25,424 bases of DNA, taken from the IMG/VR virus record IMGVR_UViG_3300038492_000407, positions 1 to 25,424 of that record. The stretch is one strand, 5' to 3'. Under the pieces are notes generated by a model that was not told the origin of the DNA, did no database searches, and saw only the letters and a program-made list of their open reading frames with translations. Of the stretch, positions 10,036 through 24,629 are shown piece by piece (position 1 is the first letter of the stretch; each line of letters opens with the position of its first letter). The position numbers and the translations under genes were made by a program. This DNA is from a virus (lineage: Duplodnaviria; Caudoviricetes).

Positions 10036-10695
10036 ATGCGCAAGCTACTCACGATAGCGGCGCTCCTCGCGGTCTTCGCGTCGGCGCCAATCCATGCTGC
10101 TGATCTCGGCGGAAAGGCTGTCGCTCAACAGCCAGCAGAGCCGCGAGCGGTATCGCGCACCGGCTGCTATTTTGGCGTCCATGCTGGCGTCGTATCGCAA
10201 TCGGTCGACATCGAGGCAGGTGGCGCGAACATCTTCACTCTTGGACTGGATGGGACGTTCATCGGCGGTCAAGCGGGCTGTGACGCTCAGGCAGGCCGTA
10301 TCGTTGGCGGCCTCTATGGCGAGTATAATTTCTTCCAGGCGGAAGGTGAGAACGCGTTTCTCGCGATCAACGACATCGAGCTTGATAGCAAGTGGTCGCT
10401 CGGCTTGCGTCTCGGCTTCCTGCTCAACCAGCACACGCTGTTGTACGGCAAGGCAGCATTCACGAAAGCGAAGGGCGACAACAACGATCTGACAGGTTGG
10501 GATTTCGGCGGCGGTCTCGAGCTTGACTTGACGAGAGCGCTATCACTTCAGCTGGACTACACCGGCACGAAGTGGAACGATGACGATAACGCGTTCGGTC
10601 TCACGGGTGTGACGGCAGAGTCGCTAGCGCATGCTGGGCGGATCGGACTTATCTACAGGTTCGGCGCCAACAATGGAATTAACTGGTGGAACTAG
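10036..10695 (+). CDS. Outer-membrane beta-barrel protein, Omp25/RopB-like
   Basis: Signal peptide then AADL; TGCYFGVHAG, GGQAGCD, RLGF...LLYGKA, GWDFGGGLE and RIGLIYRF strands. Confidence 0.88.
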   Translation: MRKLLTIAALLAVFASAPIHAADLGGKAVAQQPAEPRAVSRTGCYFGVHAGVVSQSVDIEAGGANIFTLGLDGTFIGGQAGCDAQAGRIVGGLYGEYNFFQAEGENAFLAINDIELDSKWSLGLRLGFLLNQHTLLYGKAAFTKAKGDNNDLTGWDFGGGLELDLTRALSLQLDYTGTKWNDDDNAFGLTGVTAESLAHAGRIGLIYRFGANNGINWWN

Positions 10696-10724: not shown

Positions 10725-10762
10725 AGGGGTCGCACTGTCGTCGTGCGGCCCCTTTGTCGTTT
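10725..10762 (+). terminator. Intrinsic terminator between convergent units
   Basis: AGGGGTCGCAC/GTGCGGCCCCT stem followed by TTGTCGTTT. Confidence 0.6.
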
Positions 10763-10992
10763 CAGTCGCTGTTGTTGATTTCGCGTCTTAGTTGCGGATT
10801 GATCGTGTCGCGAAACTGGAGCACGACGGCCAATGCTGCACCCCATACGAACCGATCATCAACAGGCAGATCTGATGCTCGAATGAGCGCGCGGCACTGA
10901 TCAGCAACGCCCATGCCGTGCACGCTGGCGATGTCGTCTTCGATGGTTGGCAGCCTTACCAAAGTCTTCGCGTTCTTGCCTTCGTAGGCCAT
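10762..10992 (-). CDS. Hypothetical protein
   Basis: AAGGAG RBS. Confidence 0.65.
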   Translation of the reverse strand: MAYEGKNAKTLVRLPTIEDDIASVHGMGVADQCRALIRASDLPVDDRFVWGAALAVVLQFRDTINPQLRREINNSD

Positions 10993-11394
10993 GTGTCACT
11001 CCTTAGTAGTTGCAATCAATCTTCGGCCAGCCGAGCTTCCATTCGTCCGTCTGCTCTACTGCGGCGTCGAGAAGTCGCTTAACAAGACTGGGCTCTGCCT
11101 CGTGTCCCTGGTCGCTATAGATTTTAAGACGGCGCTGAACGATGTCGGTTGCTTCTTCGGGTGTGCCATCCCGGAAAAAGCGCTGACCTTGGTGCAGCTT
11201 GTGGTCCGGGTCGCATCTGTCGAGCTTCCATTGCACATGGTTTAGCGATAGCTCGCCGCAGCTGGGGCAACCAAGACAGAACGGAGTCACGCCGTCGCGA
11301 CTGTTCCAGATGATTTCATGGTGGCCGCACTTCTCGCAGCCGTAGCGCATCAACGCGAAAGCTTCCTTGTGTTTGTAGGCCATGTGTCACTCCT
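10984..11394. repeat. 20-bp direct repeat GTAGGCCATGTGTCACTCCT (10984-11003 and 11375-11394)
   Basis: Exact copies, each covering the RBS, start and first codons of adjacent - strand genes. Confidence 0.9.
11003..11383 (-). CDS. Zn-ribbon phage protein
   Basis: CEKC...IWNSRDGVTPF...CPSC. Confidence 0.7.
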   Translation of the reverse strand: MAYKHKEAFALMRYGCEKCGHHEIIWNSRDGVTPFCLGCPSCGELSLNHVQWKLDRCDPDHKLHQGQRFFRDGTPEEATDIVQRRLKIYSDQGHEAEPSLVKRLLDAAVEQTDEWKLGWPKIDCNY

Positions 11395-11445
11395 GCAATG
11401 CGTTGTCTTCGACTATTTCGACGAATGCCTTGTGGCTGTGGGCCA

Positions 11446-11739
11446 TCAAACATCCTCCACAAGTTCGACATCTTCAGGCGTTGTCCAGTACGATCCGGCG
11501 TGCGGGTTGGTCTCGTAATCAAGGGGTGACGTGTAGAACACATCGTCGTATTTCGTGTGCAATCCCACAATGATCATGATTGCGCCTTTGCGCCACGCCC
11601 ACTCGGTGTCTGTGATCATGCGAACCTTCTGGCCAACGCGCCAGCGATCAGGCAGTGGCCTTTCGTCGAACGCCTCCTGCTTCAGCCGTTGGCTTTCTGC
11701 GGCATGCCAGTCTGCCTTGTCGAGCTTCTCTTGGTTCAT
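11446..11739 (-). CDS. Hypothetical protein (possible SH3-like barrel)
   Basis: GAGGTGG RBS, ATGA coupling; WRVGQKVRM pattern. Confidence 0.65.
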   Translation of the reverse strand: MNQEKLDKADWHAAESQRLKQEAFDERPLPDRWRVGQKVRMITDTEWAWRKGAIMIIVGLHTKYDDVFYTSPLDYETNPHAGSYWTTPEDVELVEDV

Positions 11740-12593
11740 GCCGACCACCTCAACCAGTAGTTCTCAGGAGTTGGCTGAGCTATCACCCATTCACACGTTT
11801 CGATCACAATGCGAAGGCTGTCGAGATACGACTCCAGAACCTCGTCCGTGCCTTTGCAGATAACGTAAGTGACGACTTGTTTTGTGCCGAGCCAGTGTTT
11901 TTCAATGCCCATTACTACGCCGACGGCTTCCAGCGGCTTGCCGATAAACCAGTGCCCAGAGATGTTCGAATACCCGGATTTGCGCGCGTCTTCATGGATC
12001 TCCGCTTGACGCGAGTATTCTTGGCGGTAGAGTTTTAGTGCGTCTTCTTTCGACGAACACATGTGCTCAACGTCTGCCGGGTCGACAAACGGATTTACCG
12101 AAGACTCGATGACAAACATGTGCCCGCCTTGGTCTTCGGTTTTTGCTTTCATCTCGGCAATTAGCATCTGTGCCCGGTTAGCGGCACGGGTCCAGTTTGG
12201 TTGAAAAGTGTATTCGTTGTCTTCTTTCTCAAAAACCCAATTGAGACCTTCTTTGCCAGTCATCTGTCGCACGACTGAGTTGATGCCGCCTGCGTTGTAG
12301 CTGGAGCGGAAATACCCGATTTTGAACAGGTGCTCTGGGTTGATTGTTGACTCCGGGGTTTCGGGATCGCGATTTAGATGGAGAGGTAAGGTGCCGTGCT
12401 TGCCCATTCCAAGCTCTTCGGCGACTGCATCGCATTTAGCCCGTATCTCTTCGATTTGAGATTGGGGAATGTCTTTGTATTCTAGATGGCGAGTTTCGGC
12501 CCAAATGGCATCGGTGCGCTCCTCGTATTCAGTCTCGAGTCGTTCGCATTCTGCCTTGTCGCTCATCCATGTGAGATATACGTCTAGTCCCAT
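11736..12593 (-). CDS. Conserved phage hypothetical protein (MGLDxYL type)
   Basis: 285-aa ORF with AGGAG RBS; MGLDVYL and IGYFRSSYN. Confidence 0.75.
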   Translation of the reverse strand: MGLDVYLTWMSDKAECERLETEYEERTDAIWAETRHLEYKDIPQSQIEEIRAKCDAVAEELGMGKHGTLPLHLNRDPETPESTINPEHLFKIGYFRSSYNAGGINSVVRQMTGKEGLNWVFEKEDNEYTFQPNWTRAANRAQMLIAEMKAKTEDQGGHMFVIESSVNPFVDPADVEHMCSSKEDALKLYRQEYSRQAEIHEDARKSGYSNISGHWFIGKPLEAVGVVMGIEKHWLGTKQVVTYVICKGTDEVLESYLDSLRIVIETCEWVIAQPTPENYWLRWSA

Positions 12594-12607
12594 AGGTGAA
12601 GTCTCCT

Positions 12608-12639
12608 AAAAAAGCGCCCCACTGGCGAACCAGCGGGGC
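12608..12639 (-). terminator. Intrinsic terminator with UUCG loop inside the leftward accessory unit
   Basis: GCCCCGCTGG-TTCG-CCAGTGGGGC followed by GC and a T-run on the - strand. Confidence 0.7.
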
Positions 12640-12654
12640 AGTTGGAGGAACAGG

Positions 12655-12954
12655 TCAAGCGGTCCGCGTGTCGAGTGCTGTTCGAATGCGGCGCTGGGCT
12701 GTGGTCTGAGGCAGGTTGAACTTGTCCATCACTTCTCGGACCTTCGGCTTGCCCCTTAGCTTGTTCTGAGCCTTCACCCAATCGACAACAACGTCGGTTT
12801 CAACAATTTCCTTCGGTGCAGGCTTCGGCTTGTTGGCGATACCGGCTGGCACTACCGAAAAGTAGATGAGCCGGGGTAGGAACATGACGAGCGGCTGAAT
12901 CATTTGTTGACCGATAATCTTGCTCCAGGGGTCGTGCGGTGCTTCGCATTGCAT
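12655..12954 (-). CDS. Hypothetical protein with C-terminal HTH-like segment
   Basis: AAGGA RBS; PKVREVMDKFNLPQTTAQRRI. Confidence 0.6.
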   Translation of the reverse strand: MQCEAPHDPWSKIIGQQMIQPLVMFLPRLIYFSVVPAGIANKPKPAPKEIVETDVVVDWVKAQNKLRGKPKVREVMDKFNLPQTTAQRRIRTALDTRTA

Positions 12955-13010
12955 GGTGAATTCCTTTGGTTCGACTTCGGTAGCAGGTACAAACTGCGAC
13001 CTTGACCCTA

Positions 13011-13038
13011 ATATAGTCTTAAAATGGGGTCATGTCAA
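13011..13038 (-). promoter_or_regulatory. Leftward sigma70 promoter
   Basis: TTGACA-N16-CTATAT on the - strand. Confidence 0.75.
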
Positions 13039-13046
13039 TAGGGGGG

Positions 13047-13074
13047 TTGACATATTTCGACCCCACGCTATATC
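13047..13074 (+). promoter_or_regulatory. Rightward sigma70 promoter
   Basis: TTGACA-N15-CTATAT(C), back-to-back with the leftward promoter. Confidence 0.7.
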
Positions 13075-13100
13075 CATTATAGAGCCAAAGGGAGATTAAA

Positions 13101-13349
13101 ATGCTTTATCGTGCAATTTTGATAGTTGCGTTGCTTGGGTTGACTGCCTGCACAGATCAAAAGGGCGCGCAGCGCGTGCTCGAAGAGCAGGGCTACACGG
13201 ATATTAAGACGACTGGATATAGTTTTTTTGCTTGCAGCGAAAACGACACTTTCGCGACGGGCTTTGAAGCCATGTCTCCGGCTGGCAAGTCGGTCAAAGG
13301 TACAGTTTGCTCTGCCTTCTGGAAGGGCAAAACCATCCGTCTACATTAG
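13101..13349 (+). CDS. Small phage lipoprotein
   Basis: Lipobox LTAC; GYTDI..TGY..F.CS..D.F.TGF.A....G..V.G.VC pattern; GGGAG RBS. Confidence 0.8.
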   Translation: MLYRAILIVALLGLTACTDQKGAQRVLEEQGYTDIKTTGYSFFACSENDTFATGFEAMSPAGKSVKGTVCSAFWKGKTIRLH

Positions 13350-13360
13350 GAGCTTACGCC

Positions 13361-13537
13361 ATGGGCGCACCGGCAAGGCCGAAAAACACTGCAGAATTCA
13401 ACGTCCGCATGCCGGCCAAGATCCGCGATGCGCTCGATAAGATGGCTGCGAAAAACGAACGCTCGCGCAATGCCGAGGTCGTTTACGCGCTCAAAGTGCA
13501 CTTGGGTTTGGTTGAGGGGAGCAAGGCCAATGGGTGA
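13361..13537 (+). CDS. Arc-family ribbon-helix-helix repressor
   Basis: FNVRMPAKIRDALDKMAAKNERSRNAEVVYAL; AGGAG RBS. Confidence 0.88.
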   Translation: MGAPARPKNTAEFNVRMPAKIRDALDKMAAKNERSRNAEVVYALKVHLGLVEGSKANG

Positions 13538-13673
13538 CTATCTTCGCGAACAGTACGGGCATAGAGCGCCAAGGCGGGTTTTTCCGCGCGGTGGAGCGCT
13601 GGGCTGGATATTTGTTTGCATGGTGCTCGCATGGTCCGCATTCGCCGCCGTCTACGGCTACGGACTCGGGTAG
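13530..13673 (+). CDS. Small single-TM protein
   Basis: GGGGAG RBS; hydrophobic C-terminus. Confidence 0.5.
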   Translation: MGDYLREQYGHRAPRRVFPRGGALGWIFVCMVLAWSAFAAVYGYGLG

Positions 13674-13727
13674 AGGCAACCTTCTAAAACAACGATGAAA
13701 TCAGTTGTTTGTGTGATTCTTCTGCAC

Positions 13728-13756
13728 TTGACGAAAGGGGCAAATCACTTGATTAA
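13728..13756 (+). promoter_or_regulatory. Putative late promoter with GGGCAAATCAC spacer motif
   Basis: TTGACG-AAAG-GGGCAAATCAC; the same motif occurs at 19059-19080. Confidence 0.5.
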
Positions 13757-13859
13757 CGGATGTTCATACGTGTTCGGGGTGCGAGCGTGCTGTCTGTATG
13801 CCTTTGCCGCGCCCCAAGGCTGCTTTCCGCCACGATGGCGAAGCTGTGCCTGCTGAACT

Positions 13860-13875
13860 TGTTTCACGTGAAACA
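13860..13875. promoter_or_regulatory. parS: parS centromere-like site (perfect chromosomal consensus)
   Basis: TGTTTCACGTGAAACA, a 16/16 palindrome in an intergenic region. Confidence 0.85.
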
Positions 13876-13978
13876 TCCGATCAATCCCGTCAACGCTGGT
13901 TATGTCGCCCGTTCCCCAATCCGGGTTCAGGCATTGGGTTGAGCCAGTGTTGGCGGGGCTTCTACAGGGGACCGTGCC

Positions 13979-15208
13979 ATGTTTAGTCGCAAAGCTCCAA
14001 AGCCAAACCCGCTCGGCCTGCCGCCGCAGGTAGCGCGGTTTTTCACGATCCTGGCGCTGCTCGGGTTGGTTTGCACCGTTGTCGACACCACCTATTCCGG
14101 TCGCTTCGGCCTGACCTATGACGAGATCTCAGGGATTGGCATGGGTGCTGTATCACTCGCGTCCGGTTGCCTGCTTGTGGTTGCTATTGCACTCTACCGC
14201 ATGGGCTTCATCGATATCGCAAAGGGGCTCGCCGCCGTTTGGGCTTGCTGCTTCGTGTTCAACATCTTCACGAATACCGGCGTTGCAACTGCAAACCGTA
14301 TGGCAGAGGTCCAGGAAGCCAAGCATACCGCTGGCACGTTCAAGGATCACACCAAAACTCGCGACGAAGCCGAAGCCAACCTGAAAACCTTCGGCGCTCA
14401 ATTGGCGCGTTTGCACAGCGATTTCCGAGATCTGACGGCAGTTAAGGTGGGCGATTGGACAGCAACAGCTGTGCCGGCGTCGGTGCCTGATCTGGAAGTT
14501 CTGATCGTGGAGAAGGAAGCCGAGCGCGCACGGGAAGCCAACCGCGTTAAATGTGGTCCGATCTGCGAACAACGGGCTCGTGAGAAGGCGCACTTGATCA
14601 AGCTCAAGGGCGTAGCCGTCAAAATCGCGAAGCTTGAAGGCCAGATCACAGCAACCAAGCGCGTGCTCGAGGATGCCCGAAAGACGGTCGCGACGGCTGA
14701 TACGGGTATCTCGAACGTTGCGAATGCATCCGGTCTGGTTGCACGCTGGACAATCGGTTGGTTCACCGACGGCAACACCGATTCAGCCATGCAGAACACG
14801 AACGAAGGTCTCGGTATCGGCTTGGCCTTTGTCATCGCTGTTGCGGCCGCGGGCACGAACGTTGCTGGGGCATGGCCTTATTTGATGCAAATTCGGCCCA
14901 TGGAAGCTATGCCGTTGAAACCACAGGGATTTGAACCGTCGGGTTCTGGCAGTATGGTTCGACCAGAATTCCCGACGCAAGCGCCGCTCGACCCACCCCG
15001 CTCGACACAGGGAACTGAGCTGGCTGCCGCCGCTGTGCCTGGTACAACCGGAGGTGCCCCCGCGGCTCCGGCAGGTGCAGCGGCCCCTCAACATGCGACC
15101 ACCTACAACGTGGGTGTCATGAACGACGAAGAGACGCGTCAGATGCTAGCCCGCATCAGTGCAGGCATTCATGGCGCCATCAAAGGACACATGCAGAGGG
15201 CCGCATGA
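13979..15208 (+). CDS. Membrane protein: 3 N-terminal TMs, long coiled coil, C-terminal TM (DUF4407-like architecture)
   Basis: Hydrophobic segments at about residues 20-100 and 275-300; heptads flanking KCGPIC. Confidence 0.75.
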   Translation: MFSRKAPKPNPLGLPPQVARFFTILALLGLVCTVVDTTYSGRFGLTYDEISGIGMGAVSLASGCLLVVAIALYRMGFIDIAKGLAAVWACCFVFNIFTNTGVATANRMAEVQEAKHTAGTFKDHTKTRDEAEANLKTFGAQLARLHSDFRDLTAVKVGDWTATAVPASVPDLEVLIVEKEAERAREANRVKCGPICEQRAREKAHLIKLKGVAVKIAKLEGQITATKRVLEDARKTVATADTGISNVANASGLVARWTIGWFTDGNTDSAMQNTNEGLGIGLAFVIAVAAAGTNVAGAWPYLMQIRPMEAMPLKPQGFEPSGSGSMVRPEFPTQAPLDPPRSTQGTELAAAAVPGTTGGAPAAPAGAAAPQHATTYNVGVMNDEETRQMLARISAGIHGAIKGHMQRAA

Positions 15209-15879
15209 CGCCAAGAGAAATCGTCCAGATCATCAAAGAGCAGCCGACCGAGACCGGAATTCGGCTGCTCTTAACGCTGTTCAGCGACAAGTTCACCGTT
15301 GCGAACAGTGCTATCGACCCTAAGCCTGACCCGCGTGACAAGACTGGCGTGCCGATACGGCCTGAGAGCGGCCGGCAAGGTTTCAAGGGTCCGCAGGTTC
15401 GCACCTCGAGCGGTAGTACTGCTACGGGCATGACAGGTCGGCAGACCTTGCGCAATATCGTCGATAACATGGGCTCATTCGAAGTCCGGCCTGGCGTTGA
15501 TCCAAATCACCCCGATCGCCACTACAAGGTGCACAAAAATCCGCCGATCAAGATCGAAGACATTCGCCCATGCGAGCGCTGCCGCACGCTCTACGTGCCA
15601 GAAATTGAGGGCGGCACCGAGTGCCGCGGCTGCGGCCACACCCTCGGAACCGAGTTCAAAAGCGAGACATTCAAAGAGCCTGGCGTCACGATCGACGGTC
15701 GAGAGCCGACACAGGAAGAATTCGACGAGGCGACGCGCAAGATGAACGAAGACACGAAGCGCGACCTCCAGGCAATGCGGGACGGAACCTATGTACCAGT
15801 TGATCGCAAGGGCGTTAACCCGGACTCCACACATCCGACGTTTCCACAAAGCCCGCGGCCTTTCAAAGGCTCTACTTAA
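15205..15879 (+). CDS. Hypothetical protein with Zn ribbon
   Basis: CERC...CRGC; ATGA coupling. Confidence 0.7.
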   Translation: MTPREIVQIIKEQPTETGIRLLLTLFSDKFTVANSAIDPKPDPRDKTGVPIRPESGRQGFKGPQVRTSSGSTATGMTGRQTLRNIVDNMGSFEVRPGVDPNHPDRHYKVHKNPPIKIEDIRPCERCRTLYVPEIEGGTECRGCGHTLGTEFKSETFKEPGVTIDGREPTQEEFDEATRKMNEDTKRDLQAMRDGTYVPVDRKGVNPDSTHPTFPQSPRPFKGST

Positions 15880-19181: not shown

Positions 19182-19691
19182 ATGACGCCACAGCAGCAAC
19201 AATTCGTCGAAAACATCAAGGTTCATCGGATGTCTAAGTCGGACGCATACCGCGCGGCTTACGACAAGCCGGATTACTCCCCAAAGCAGGCAGGCAACGC
19301 CGTCACGAAGCTGATGTCCAAGCCGTACATTGCCGAAGCTTTGGCTCAGTACACCGAGGCGATCGTCAACAAGGTGGCCGAGAAGAAGGCCGAAATCGTC
19401 GTTGACCATCAAGAGGAAGTCCGGCAGCACCTTCGCCGCATCATCGACGCTGCGGTCGAAGACAACAATATGGATGCTGCTATCCGTGCCACTGAGCTGA
19501 TGGGCAAGATGGACGCGTGCGGCAACTTCATCGAGCAGCCGGCACCACAGGAAGGCGGATCGGCTTCAGGCGTCACGGTTAACGTCAATCCAGGCGAGCC
19601 GAGCCCACTGTCTATGATTGCCGCGACGATCAAGAAAGGCGGGCCAGCGAAACAGATCGAAGCGCAGGCGACCGAGGTCGAGGCGGCGTAA
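19182..19691 (+). CDS. terS: Terminase small subunit
   Basis: TPQQQQFV.....MSKSDAYRAAY.......A...KLMSKPYI HTH and AAIRATELMGK; upstream of TerL. Confidence 0.82.
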   Translation: MTPQQQQFVENIKVHRMSKSDAYRAAYDKPDYSPKQAGNAVTKLMSKPYIAEALAQYTEAIVNKVAEKKAEIVVDHQEEVRQHLRRIIDAAVEDNNMDAAIRATELMGKMDACGNFIEQPAPQEGGSASGVTVNVNPGEPSPLSMIAATIKKGGPAKQIEAQATEVEAA

Positions 19692-20030: not shown

Positions 20031-21707
20031 GTGGCAGTTGCCGAGCAGATCTCCGAATTCCAGCTATGCGATGATCCTTGGGAACTCGAGGAGCTTGTCC
20101 GGGCGATAGAGTTGCAGCCCGAACACATCAAGCGAGAAGCTTACCGGGAACTGTTCTCCCACGATCTCTATGCCCTGCTGCGCTACGGCCTGGCCCGACG
20201 AGATCTTATCGAGGTTGAGGTTCAGGACGAGGAGACGGGCCGCAAGTGGAAGGAACCACGACGGCCAGACCAGATCAAATGGCTGTTCGACCGAGCCCGC
20301 GAGTACCAAGCAGCGCCGAACGGGTATCTCGATCTCTGGGCACGTGAGCACTACAAGTCGACGATCATCACCAATGCGGGGCTGATCTTCCGCATAATCC
20401 AAGACCAGAATATATCGATCGGCATATTCAGCCACACCAAGGCGATCGCCCGAACGTTCTTGCGCGAGATCAAGGTCGAACTCGAACAAAACCCCGTATT
20501 CCCTTATCTTTGGCCGGAAATCTTCTGGGAAAATCCACGCAAGGAAAGCCCGAAGTGGACCGAGAACGAAGGTATCGTCGTCAAGCGGACCGAGAACTCC
20601 AGGGAAGCGACCGTCGAAGGCTGGGGGCTCGTAGATGGACAGCCGACGTCAAGGCACTTCACGCACCTGCACTACGATGACGTCGTGACACTCGAGTCTG
20701 TCACTGGGCCGGAGATGATCAAAAAGACGACCGCGGCTTTCGAGATGTCCTCGAACCTTGGGTCTGAAGGCGGTACTCGAGTAATCGTCGGCACGATCTA
20801 CCACTTCGGCGACACGTACATGCAGCTGATCCGCAGAAATGCGGTCAAGACGCGGATATATCCCTGCACGCACGACGGCGAAGAGAACTTAGACGACCCC
20901 ATGAACTGCGTGTTGCAGTCACCTGCTTACCTCAAGATGAAGCGGGTCGATCAGGGGCCATACACGTTTGGAACTCAGATGTTGCTAAACCCGAAGGGTG
21001 ATGGGGCTCAGACCTTCAAGCCTGAATGGCTGAAATGGATCACGAACGAGCTTTCACCGGACGAAGCCGAAGAAATGTTCCGGATCTTGATTGTCGACCC
21101 GGCGAACGAGAAGCGAAAGCACAATGACTGGACGTCGATGTGGGTGTTCGGATGCGACAGCAACCGCAACTACATTCAGCTGGACCATATCCGAGACCGC
21201 TTCGGCCTGACTGAGCGCACGGATGCAGTGTTTCAGCTGCACGAATTCTGGAAACCACAGCTGACAGTCTACGAGCACTACGGCATGCAAGCCGACACGG
21301 CCCATATCACGGCCGAGATGGAGCACACGAACTACCGTTTCGATATTCTCGAGGTTGGCGGTACGACACCCAAGAATGACCGCATCAAGCGTCTACAGCC
21401 GATCTTTGCTGCGGGACGCATCTATCTTCGTCGCGCGCGACACTACACGGACTACGAGGGCACGACCTCGAACCTGATGGAGCGGTTCGTCGAGGAAGAA
21501 TACAAGGCATTCCCGGTCATGGCCTTCGACGACGGTCTCGATAGCATGGCACGGCTCGAAGATCCGGACGTACAGGCACAAATCACCTGGCCCAACCGGA
21601 AGCAGAAGGGCGACATCAGGGTTGTAACTGAGGCGCCTGACAGAGCGTCGACACGCAGTCGACGCAGAGGTTCGCAGCCTGGACCAAGGGTTATCACTAG
21701 AAGGTAG
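20031..21707 (+). CDS. terL: Terminase large subunit
   Basis: Walker A variant REHYKST, TSRHF..LHYDD Walker B, VGTIYH, nuclease VDPA...D and DDGLDS. Confidence 0.92.
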   Translation: MAVAEQISEFQLCDDPWELEELVRAIELQPEHIKREAYRELFSHDLYALLRYGLARRDLIEVEVQDEETGRKWKEPRRPDQIKWLFDRAREYQAAPNGYLDLWAREHYKSTIITNAGLIFRIIQDQNISIGIFSHTKAIARTFLREIKVELEQNPVFPYLWPEIFWENPRKESPKWTENEGIVVKRTENSREATVEGWGLVDGQPTSRHFTHLHYDDVVTLESVTGPEMIKKTTAAFEMSSNLGSEGGTRVIVGTIYHFGDTYMQLIRRNAVKTRIYPCTHDGEENLDDPMNCVLQSPAYLKMKRVDQGPYTFGTQMLLNPKGDGAQTFKPEWLKWITNELSPDEAEEMFRILIVDPANEKRKHNDWTSMWVFGCDSNRNYIQLDHIRDRFGLTERTDAVFQLHEFWKPQLTVYEHYGMQADTAHITAEMEHTNYRFDILEVGGTTPKNDRIKRLQPIFAAGRIYLRRARHYTDYEGTTSNLMERFVEEEYKAFPVMAFDDGLDSMARLEDPDVQAQITWPNRKQKGDIRVVTEAPDRASTRSRRRGSQPGPRVITRR

Positions 21708-22062: not shown

Positions 22063-22308
22063 ATGGGATTCGGCGGCGGCAGTCGAACGCCCCTTCCTGA
22101 ACCGGAGCCGGTCACGCCAGTTCCACAGGAAGAGGGCTCGAACAAGATCGAAGCGCAGAGACGTGCTCGCCTGGCTGCTGCCGATCGCGAGGGCTTCTCC
22201 GAGCATCGTAAATCCGGTCAAGGACGTGGCACTCGGTCTGAACCAAACAGGCAGGGTGCCACGGGCTCGACCATCCAGGGCAAACGCACAGCGAGGATGA
22301 TGTACTAA
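22063..22308 (+). CDS. Small pre-portal virion-type protein, paralog 1 (MGFG...ARMMY)
   Basis: Termini shared with the next two ORFs; position before the head-tail connector. Confidence 0.75.
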   Translation: MGFGGGSRTPLPEPEPVTPVPQEEGSNKIEAQRRARLAAADREGFSEHRKSGQGRGTRSEPNRQGATGSTIQGKRTARMMY

Positions 22309-22568
22309 TGGGATTCGGTAAGAAATCTTCGCAGCCACAGCCGGCTGCCCCAGTCGACAACACGCCGCAAGTCACCAGCAACCAAGTCGAGCAAGGCGAG
22401 GATGCTGGCCGGCCCGGTACTCGGCGTGTGGCCCGCTTCCGCTCGATCGAGCGCGATAGGGACGCATCCTTGAATGATCCTGGCTCGGAAACGGGCGGGG
22501 ATGATCCTATGGGCGGAAGCCGACGACCGAGGGCGAGCGGGCGAAAGTCCGCTGCGATGTTGTACTGA
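22308..22568 (+). CDS. Small pre-portal virion-type protein, paralog 2 (MGFG...AAMLY)
   Basis: TAATG coupling; shared termini. Confidence 0.75.
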   Translation: MGFGKKSSQPQPAAPVDNTPQVTSNQVEQGEDAGRPGTRRVARFRSIERDRDASLNDPGSETGGDDPMGGSRRPRASGRKSAAMLY

Positions 22569-22801
22569 TGGGGTTCGGAAGCAAATCGTCGTCGACTCCG
22601 AAGAAAGATCCGGAGCCGACGTTCAAGCAGGTTGAGACCACGAACGACCCTCAACAGCGTAGAACTCTTGGTGTTAGGCGTGCTGAACGCTTCCAAACAC
22701 GAGACCAACCAGCGGCTCATATGCTTGAGGGGGATGAGAGCGGCTACGGCTCGCCGGCTCCTCCAGGCACAGCGACCCGCAAAGCTCGCATGATGTACTA
22801 A
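22568..22801 (+). CDS. Small pre-portal virion-type protein, paralog 3 (MGFG...ARMMY)
   Basis: TGATG coupling; shared termini. Confidence 0.75.
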   Translation: MGFGSKSSSTPKKDPEPTFKQVETTNDPQQRRTLGVRRAERFQTRDQPAAHMLEGDESGYGSPAPPGTATRKARMMY

Positions 22802-22811
22802 GGGACGGTGC

Positions 22812-24629
22812 ATGCCTCAGCTTCACGACATCATCAGGCAAGGCCAAACCAAGCGGGATAACCGCCACGGTTGGATTACCACCTGGGAAGAACTCGCCGA
22901 AACCTTCCTGCCTGTGAGGGAAGGTTTCACGGGTGAACTCACGCAGGGTCAAGAGCGTGGATATCGCAATTTCAGCGATGCCCCGCAATTGGCTCGGCGT
23001 GGGCTCTCGACTGCGCTGTCGACATTCAATAGGCCGGCCGGCAAGATCTGGCTCAAGGCCGTCACGTCGAACCGAGGACTGATGAGAGTGCCTGAGGTCA
23101 TCGCATGGTGCCAGGCAGTAACGCAGATCACATATGACGCGCTCTACCATCCGGACGCGCATATGGAACGCAATATGACCGAGGCTGATAACGATCTGAT
23201 CACCTTCGGCACCAACTGCGTAAAGATCGGCTGGAACCAGAAAAAACGGCACCTGACCTACAAAACCTACCACCTGAAAAACATCGTCATTGGTGTCGAC
23301 GAATTCAACAATGTTATCGCGGTCTGGTACTTCTGCAAGCTGCCACTGCGCGACATCGTTGAGATGTTCGGAGTGGACAAGCTCACGCAGCAAATGAAAC
23401 GTGCGTATCAGGAAAGCCCACCGCGGCTCGACGACAAGTTCGACATCGTTCACGCTTGCGTGCCGAACAAGGATTGGGCTGGCAGGTTCAGGCCGGGTGA
23501 TGGCGACTCTATGCGCCCGCCCGACATGCCTTACCTGTCGCTCTGGTGGGCCGAGAAGGACAAGGAACCACTAGACGTCGGCGGATATTGGGATTTCCCG
23601 TATCTGGTCGCGCGCTGGGACACTCAGAGCCAAGAGGACTACGGGCGGTCGCCGTCCATGGTTGCGCTCGATAGCGCACGACTGATCAATGAAATGGCGC
23701 GCGACATGGCTGATGCAGGCGCCAATGCCGTCAGGCCGCCCCTCGGTGCTTGGGGGGACTTCATCGCAGGTGATGTGCAATTGCACTCAGGCGGTCTGAC
23801 GCTCTTCGATAGCCAAGGCAAGTGGGATCGCAACGGCAACCCTATCTGGACGATCGAGACTGGCGCGATGCCAAAAGAGATCTTCCAGATGATGGAAATC
23901 ATCCGCGAAGACATCAAGGCCGCGTTCTTCCTGCACGTGCTCGAGCTTCCCGATGCTCGCGATACCGACATGACCGCAACCGAGGTCAATGCGCGCTATG
24001 ATGAATTCCTGCGCAACGGTGCCCCGACATTCTCGCGCGTTGAGAGTGAGTACAACGGCGGTCATCTGAACCGGGTATTCAGCATCTTGAACCGAGAGGG
24101 GATGTACCCGCCAGTTCCGGAAATACTCCGGGCAACGAACGAGAACATCGAATTTGAGTATGAGTCGCCGCTAAAGCAGCTGCGCAAGCGTGCCGAAGCC
24201 GTCAAGACGCTCGAGGGCATGTCCATGATTGGCGAGGGTGCCATGGTCATGGGCGAAGAAAAGGCTCTGGAGGTGTCCGACAACTTCAGCGCTGACGGAT
24301 ATGCCAGATACATGGCGGACAAGCTCGATATGCCAATGGAGCTTGTGAAGCCGTTCGAAGAAGTCATGGCAATACGCAAGCAGCGTGCAGAGCAGGCCGA
24401 AATGGCAATGATGGCAGAGATGGCCAACAAAGCCGCGCCAGCTGTTGCTGCAGCCGGAAACCTGCCGTCACAGCTTCTCGGTCCGGGCTCGCCTGTGGCT
24501 GAGGGTGGTGCGCTCGAAGGTGCCGACGTGCCAGGTGCTCTCGAGGCCGGCGCAGATGAGGCGGCTAACGTGTTCGGCGATGATGGCGGCGAGCCGATCG
24601 ATGCTGAATACGAGGACGTTGCAGCATGA
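22812..24629 (+). CDS. Portal / head-to-tail connector protein (T7 gp8 / BPP-1-like podovirus type)
   Basis: WEELAETFLP, DLITFGT, FPYLVARW....EDYGRSP.M.AL, MTATEV and EYESPL motifs. Confidence 0.92.
   Translation: MPQLHDIIRQGQTKRDNRHGWITTWEELAETFLPVREGFTGELTQGQERGYRNFSDAPQLARRGLSTALSTFNRPAGKIWLKAVTSNRGLMRVPEVIAWCQAVTQITYDALYHPDAHMERNMTEADNDLITFGTNCVKIGWNQKKRHLTYKTYHLKNIVIGVDEFNNVIAVWYFCKLPLRDIVEMFGVDKLTQQMKRAYQESPPRLDDKFDIVHACVPNKDWAGRFRPGDGDSMRPPDMPYLSLWWAEKDKEPLDVGGYWDFPYLVARWDTQSQEDYGRSPSMVALDSARLINEMARDMADAGANAVRPPLGAWGDFIAGDVQLHSGGLTLFDSQGKWDRNGNPIWTIETGAMPKEIFQMMEIIREDIKAAFFLHVLELPDARDTDMTATEVNARYDEFLRNGAPTFSRVESEYNGGHLNRVFSILNREGMYPPVPEILRATNENIEFEYESPLKQLRKRAEAVKTLEGMSMIGEGAMVMGEEKALEVSDNFSADGYARYMADKLDMPMELVKPFEEVMAIRKQRAEQAEMAMMAEMANKAAPAVAAAGNLPSQLLGPGSPVAEGGALEGADVPGALEAGADEAANVFGDDGGEPIDAEYEDVAA

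Follow-up and report, generated by a model that had tools for sequence, protein, structure and literature searches.

A perfect bacterial centromere site lies on a genome fragment of an uncultured, aquatic tailed phage without visible ParA or ParB genes, which raises the question of which protein reads this site and what the phage gains from it. The DNA analysed here (the window, 25,424 nt) is the whole of record G000, a linear fragment with a CheckV completeness of 36%. At positions 13860-13875 it carries the 16-bp palindrome TGTTTCACGTGAAACA, which agrees with the consensus chromosomal parS at 16/16 positions. The same 16 letters are printed as the parS consensus in PMC7383237, and they are also the sequence of the Caulobacter parS oligonucleotide described in PMC10547168. 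The window site is very likely a borrowed host centromere, representing a variant of the phi29 arrangement in a host that probably does not sporulate.

The parS site and its surroundings

The preliminary description of this DNA claimed an exact, single and intergenic palindrome that was very unlikely to have arisen by chance, and both claims were borne out. The window contains no other perfect 16-bp palindrome, no further site was found at up to four mismatches, and the number of chance copies expected per window is 3e-6 to 7e-6 under Markov models (orders 0-4) fitted to the window itself. It is located between an Arc-like gene on the left and the gene of a 409-aa protein on the right, and its neighbourhood contains the following features:

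13361-13537, + strand: gene of a 58-aa Arc-like ribbon-helix-helix regulator (PF03869; called start), 320 nt upstream of parS
13699-13755, + strand: two IHF-like motifs (13699-13711 and 13743-13755), 44 nt apart, from a pattern match
13728-13756, + strand: putative promoter-like stretch read from the sequence, with a good -35-like hexamer (13728-13733) and a poor -10
13860-13875, no strand: consensus parS, perfect palindrome, single copy (sequence and consensus of PMC7383237)
13885-13958, + strand: stem of 17 pairs, some of them G-U, within the leader that separates parS from the 409-aa gene (folding z = -2.25 for 13700-13985)
13979-15208, + strand: gene of a 409-aa membrane and coiled-coil protein, starting 103 nt after parS (sequence, phage relatives)

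Two short open frames (13760-13942 and 13798-13986) overlap parS, while neither is a called protein in a collection of 15 billion or has a match among 50,697 phage records; a coding reading of this stretch was therefore ruled out. A repeat search detected no iteron or tandem centromere around the site. Phage genes flank parS without any joint, and it is neither in a chromosome origin region nor near parAB.

The promoter-like stretch is the putative start of the rightward gene run towards the terminase and portal genes, and the promoter scan made no call there. The IHF-like motifs, which overlap this stretch with one of their two copies, are two of the only three matches in the window to the IHF-like pattern; near parS in loci L001-L080, such motifs are not enriched (0.22 vs 0.23 per kb). 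No CtrA-like full site is present in the window. The leader stem, outside which parS lies, had no match in Rfam and may be a regulatory RNA element for the NusG-like antiterminator. The family of the 409-aa protein comprises 326 clusters at E <= 0.001, with no Pfam or PHROG match and no family in the atlas search, and is characterized by three N-terminal membrane segments, a coiled coil and a conserved CxxxC. In most relatives, its gene adjoins or neighbours the small terminase gene.

Gene content, host and assembly check

To the left of parS, the window encodes a YqaJ exonuclease, an Erf annealing protein, a helix-turn-helix repressor-like gene, an O-like initiator, two DNA methyltransferases (MT-A70 and C5), NusG and an outer-membrane beta-barrel protein. 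To the right, the 409-aa gene, a tRNA-Met, small genes, both terminase subunits and a podovirus-type portal follow on one strand. The genes referred to below are as follows:

10036-10695: outer-membrane beta-barrel gene, common to several relatives (PF13505)
19182-19691, + strand: terminase small subunit, 5.3 kb downstream of parS (phrog_51, PF03592)
20031-21707, + strand: terminase large subunit (phrog_38)
22812-24629, + strand: podovirus-type portal / head-tail connector (PF12236, phrog_332)

Several other features were observed in the window. The beta-barrel protein is possibly a receptor-masking or exclusion protein. A near-consensus sigma-70 promoter (11/12; 13010-13038, - strand) drives the leftward gene run 10762-12954, a nucleoside deoxyribosyltransferase-like gene (722-1150, - strand) lies between Erf and the exonuclease, and three tandem, apparently paralogous small genes starting with MGFG precede the portal gene (22063-22801). 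GANTC is found 58 times, where base composition predicts 97 copies.

The site might have belonged to a host-derived chimera, and this objection was removed by public assemblies, since one unbroken phage contig covers parS with zero differing letters and no joint in each of two runs (11836-15624 in X1, which is possibly the source run, and 12306-15488 in X2). Another X2 contig (29,865 bases) begins at 15701 and continues about 20 kb beyond the right end of the window, which places the genome at about 45 kb or more. The depth steps of the public contigs are not the same in the two runs and are uninformative about genome ends. No RNA holder of the window sequence was listed.

An alphaproteobacterial podovirus had been proposed from the sequence. 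A podovirus-like head is plausible from weak protein matches, and an alphaproteobacterial host is plausible from likewise weak matches at 23-30% identity. The 20 plasmid records matched by the beta-barrel protein all came from Rhizobium, Cereibacter, Methylocystis or Bradyrhizobium (25-30% identity), and NusG matched one Sinorhizobium phage at 23% identity. A prophage search in GTDB returned four distant loci and no host. The beta-barrel gene and the Pseudomonadota matches suggest a Gram-negative, probably non-sporulating host, which does not fit the endospore entrapment that goes with the borrowed parS of phi29-type phages.

No match to ParB_N, HTH_ParB, ParA, tyrosine integrase or resolvase was found in the contig, and the plasmid-prophage type of cassette with parA/parB genes beside the centromere is absent. 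The preliminary description, which reported no visible ParA or ParB, is thus correct for the contig, and it applies to this part only, because at least 20 kb of the genome lies outside this fragment, and a parS-binding ParB could be encoded there. ParB_N was found in none of the 10 own and related records, including the complete or near-complete parS-bearing G001, G021 and G109, and ParA is absent from G001 and G021. The profile search did find ParB in the Caulobacter control genome.

parS in related phages

No close DNA relative was found among cultured phages (tRNA matches only), so relatives were gathered by protein. Single-protein scans returned one and two loci. The search with the 409-aa gene gave 16 loci, which were grouped by shared sequence into 11 phages, and G109, which was found via its terminase and has this gene too, raised the number to 12. 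Five of these 12 (L151, L153, L154, G001 and G109) carry parS or a variant with one or two mismatches, and the site of G109, the best terminase relative, is perfect. Leaving out G109, the loci with the 409-aa gene contain four sites within two mismatches in 159,859 bases, compared with a mean of 0.05 and a maximum of 1 for 40 shuffled palindromes. parS was not found in the other seven groups, most of which are short, but one of them (G002) is 99% complete.

In 938 kb from 80 loci of the terminase family, four sites were found; control palindromes averaged 0.25, and one of them likewise reached 4. The whole-record searches took in 50 of the 80 portal and 50 of the 80 terminase loci, while all 160 stretches were scanned by script. 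Among whole records of the terminase family, 4/50 carry a site (0/5 of the near-complete ones; 0 for the reversed-pattern control). The portal family also gave 4/50, with all four sites inside open frames; these are weak and may be due to chance. Five further related records have no parS (0/5). The site is patchy among relatives, yet far above chance in the nearest family sharing the 409-aa gene.

What has been retained in these relatives is the sequence rather than a hairpin, because the changes are non-compensatory and mostly fall at two positions. In 11 imperfect sites, which are partly related so that their mismatches are not independent events, half-site positions 1 and 5 account for 14 of the 18 mismatches. 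Position 5 is the degenerate position of the general parS consensus. According to PMC10547168, it also differs in the natural parS of Bdellovibrio, and position 1 is outside the 14-bp parS core given in PMC7383237. None of the seven two-mismatch sites is a symmetric pair, in a search that hairpins with more than two changes would escape. A conserved hairpin or structured RNA, which the preliminary description had set against a true parS, was ruled out for sites within two mismatches by this result together with the lack of an Rfam match. The flanks of the sites have nothing in common beyond the 16-mer. The window parS is, judging from these comparisons, real and under selection as a sequence.

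Phage-borne parS in sequence collections

The rarity implied by the preliminary description was overrated, since phage contigs with the same word number in the thousands and records of cultured phages with it in the hundreds. About 5,700 IMG/VR stretches contain the exact word (an estimate from 2/64 parts), whereas chance would give tens, even if all 2.9 million contigs were 50 kb long. ParB_N was detected in 0/50 exact-parS virus records, including 0/11 of those at least 90% complete, and the idea of a parS phage without its own ParB therefore extends to parS-bearing phages generally in the records tested.

Queries of 30 bases with parS at their centre hit 407 and 436 records of cultured phages. 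The commonest names were Listeria, Clostridium, Microbacterium, Arthrobacter, Bacillus and Gordonia, with some of the Listeria records resembling host contigs, and no enterobacterial name was in the top ten. Enterobacteria are not known to have ParABS, and their phages are numerous in the cultured collection. Two cultured alphaproteobacterial phages have intergenic sites, and neither has ParB_N (0/2): Pelagibacter phage HTVC027P carries one parS about 630 nt from its gene for the small terminase, and Ruegeria phage RpAliso carries a pair close to an end of its genome.

The motif was also seen in other settings. Small single-stranded DNA phages (Microviridae and inovirus-like records, e.g., L009) match it, often in several places, and in L359 three copies (2501-2608) form in-frame repeats where a small phage gene starts.

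Position of parS and its lean towards terminase genes

A syntenic position of parS in relatives was not borne out, for the base position is not kept and most relatives lack the site. In three relatives (G109, G001 and G110) it lies inside coding sequence, in G109 within the gene of a 2,372-aa structural protein, a long way from where the operon starts, and in G001 within a short frame of the structural module. Such in-gene sites fit a tag for the whole molecule.

Other sites are close to packaging genes. In L153, L296, L301 and L328, parS touches the ATG of the gene directly before the large terminase, which is by position a probable small terminase although its PHROG match is an unnamed family. 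It lies 80 nt before the corresponding gene in L154, and about 450 nt before the membrane gene that precedes the small terminase in L151. In L296, parS is preceded by a gene distantly homologous to the one that encodes the 409-aa protein of the window. Since the 409-aa-type gene of G109 is one small gene away from the small terminase, the window looks like a G109-like module into which about 4 kb of small genes was inserted.

This tendency was also counted in exact-parS records. Of the genes that point away from an exact site, 77 were scanned (100 had been picked; duplicates and some short frames were dropped), and 13 of these were terminases. Among 22 records with a large terminase, the site lies within 2.2 kb upstream of it in 11 (null mean 3.9, p 0.00025), and after collapsing kin the count was 6/15 to 7/16 (p 0.01-0.03). 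The excess within 600 nt of the terminase disappeared after the same step (2/16, p 0.26).

A scan for parS followed by ATG gave 124 matches, 54 of them with a frame of at least 50 aa, and 4 of the 18 representatives scanned were terminase-family genes. One representative stands for a 19-locus phi29-type clade (L345, L346 and 17 more) with genomes of about 16 kb, in which parS lies at the 5' end of the packaging ATPase gene; an upstream start may place it inside this gene. In the unrelated phages L353, L366 and L385, parS abuts the terminase ATG. Because an ATG directly beside exact parS is not enriched overall (6/178 sites), what stands out is only that the abutting genes are terminases. These data suggest that the position of parS is free, but leans towards terminase genes.

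Possible function of the phage-borne parS

The ParB-parS complex engages ParA, the pole anchor PopZ and SMC. According to previous studies, ParB nucleates at parS and slides along DNA as a CTP-closed clamp that is lost at free ends (10.1101/816959), its spread in Caulobacter is about 2 kb (PMC5815017), and SMC is recruited at parS (PMC10197239). One strong plasmid-borne parS was reported to lower the viability of Caulobacter 100- to 1000-fold, since the cell segregates the plasmid instead of the chromosome, and one parS alone gave poor chromosome segregation in Bacillus and Pseudomonas (PMC5815017). Host ParB is, with high probability, the reader of the window site. After injection, circular or concatemeric phage DNA would load host ParB at parS and thereby be hitched to the chromosome-segregation machinery of the host. 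It would then be kept near the origin or pole region during replication and packaging, or alternatively be inherited by a daughter cell, in a carrier state without integration. Provided that host ParB is the reader, the balance tips slightly towards positioning or partition as the main benefit, with rivals that overlap; it is the likeliest benefit because one site anywhere seems to be enough and because the function is evidenced for phi29, as described in PMC2731898. The whole reading, a host-ParB docking site that hitches free phage DNA to the segregation machinery, appears to us about evenly poised. Against partition stand the lack of the site in most relatives, including the 99% complete G002, and the poor segregation of Bacillus and Pseudomonas chromosomes with a single parS; nor does simple partition explain the lean towards terminase genes.

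Titration and a packaging role, which are not mutually exclusive with positioning, were weighed against it. As phage copies rise, their sites might draw ParB, along with ParA and MipZ, off the host centromere, which would stall segregation and division and turn the cell into one large factory. The viability loss in Caulobacter (PMC5815017) agrees with such a sponge, the window site equals the Caulobacter consensus (PMC10547168), and any position would suit it, as observed in relatives. However, a sponge would favour several sites, whereas phages of the 409-aa-gene family have one per genome, and presence is patchy in portal- and terminase-family records, so that we regard titration as the main role as rather unlikely. 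A role closer to the terminase genes is suggested by the sites that touch or shortly precede the gene before the large terminase, those abutting terminase ATGs in unrelated phages and the phi29-type clade, and the count within 2.2 kb upstream (half of 22 records, with 6/15 to 7/16 left without kin); in addition, phage ParB-domain genes adjoin terminases according to PMC8256090. ParB bound there might mark the packaging start, or damp the packaging operon until replication has diluted ParB. The window site is 5.3 kb from the small terminase, which exceeds the 2-kb spread of ParB described for Caulobacter (PMC5815017), the sites of G109 and G001 are in structural genes, and the closer excess (600 nt) was lost with kin collapse, while spare non-coding DNA before the operon and selection of contigs by hallmark genes could bias the count; this role is accordingly judged unlikely. 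The preliminary description had also raised silencing of late genes from this site, which lies about 100 nt behind the promoter-like stretch. This is possible from the layout, and it was weakened by the perfect site of G109, whose distance from the operon start disfavours a purely local role. In a broader and quite speculative version, which we would not expect to hold, parS would be an element of the packaging-and-entry cycle read by host ParB and SMC in many tailed phages of non-sporulating hosts: planted repeatedly beside the terminase, it would mark the start of concatemer packaging, and ParB clamps would grip and draw in the entering genome, because DNA just upstream of pac is packaged last and likely ejected first.

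Two further explanations dispense with host ParB. The reader could be a phage protein, either a ParB in the part of the genome beyond this incomplete contig or the Arc-like protein using parS as its operator. Over about 40 residues, the Arc-like protein resembles PHROG families annotated as 'partition protein ATPase', but this match spans the ribbon-helix-helix part only, and no homologue of its gene was found in relatives with sites. G001 has a resolvase without a tyrosine integrase, a plasmid-like trait, whereas the complete or near-complete relatives named above lack ParB_N (and, in G001 and G021, ParA), and an operator has no cause to equal the host consensus at 16/16 positions; a phage-encoded reader is very unlikely on these grounds. 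Least credible of all is chance or a neutral relic from a host origin region. About 250,000 windows would yield about one exact chance match, and the patchy presence in relatives would suit this explanation, but the IMG/VR count runs to thousands where tens would be expected by chance, variants in relatives are far above control palindromes, and no host genes, foreign flank or joint surround the site.

Comparison with known systems and implications

Plasmid-prophages of the P1, N15 and RedRock type carry cassettes with their own ParA and ParB and their own centromere sequences. The window phage shares with them a centromere on a phage genome, while no own ParA/ParB or own centromere was seen in the window or in complete relatives. 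The closest precedent is provided by the Bacillus phages phi29 and Nf, whose genomes carry host-type parS read by host Spo0J (PMC2731898), just as host ParB is the proposed reader here. Unlike phi29, which has five sites and Spo0A boxes on a linear, protein-primed genome and can enter a spore, the window phage has one site, belongs to the terminase-portal type, encodes recombination and O-like replication genes, and probably infects a non-sporulating alphaproteobacterium. Its benefit must therefore differ from that of phi29, given the likely host, the other genome type and the single site. Chromosomal ParABS of Caulobacter and other bacteria offers the identical 16-bp consensus, and the variants in relatives fall at positions it tolerates (PMC7383237, PMC5815017, 10.1101/816959, PMC10197239); unlike chromosomal sites, the window parS is single rather than clustered, away from a chromosome origin and without adjacent parAB. 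Phage ParB-domain genes adjoining terminase and DNA-modification genes, as described in PMC8256090, show a similar recurring ParB-terminase neighbourhood, with a phage protein domain there and a cis site, presumably for a host protein, here.

In the openly accessible literature searched, phage use of host parS was found for phi29 and Nf only, and it was tied only to spore entrapment of Bacillus phages. The window alone is a modest example, with one site on a partial genome, and its value lies in the free position, the ParB-type variation and the terminase lean seen in its family. Cultured phages growing on laboratory hosts, such as Ruegeria phage RpAliso and the phages of Microbacterium foliorum, make the question directly testable. 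If host parS is used in this way in alphaproteobacterial and other non-sporulating hosts, centromere piracy would be a general phage strategy, which would bear on the location of phage DNA in the cell, persistence in a carrier state and the arrest of division by infection.
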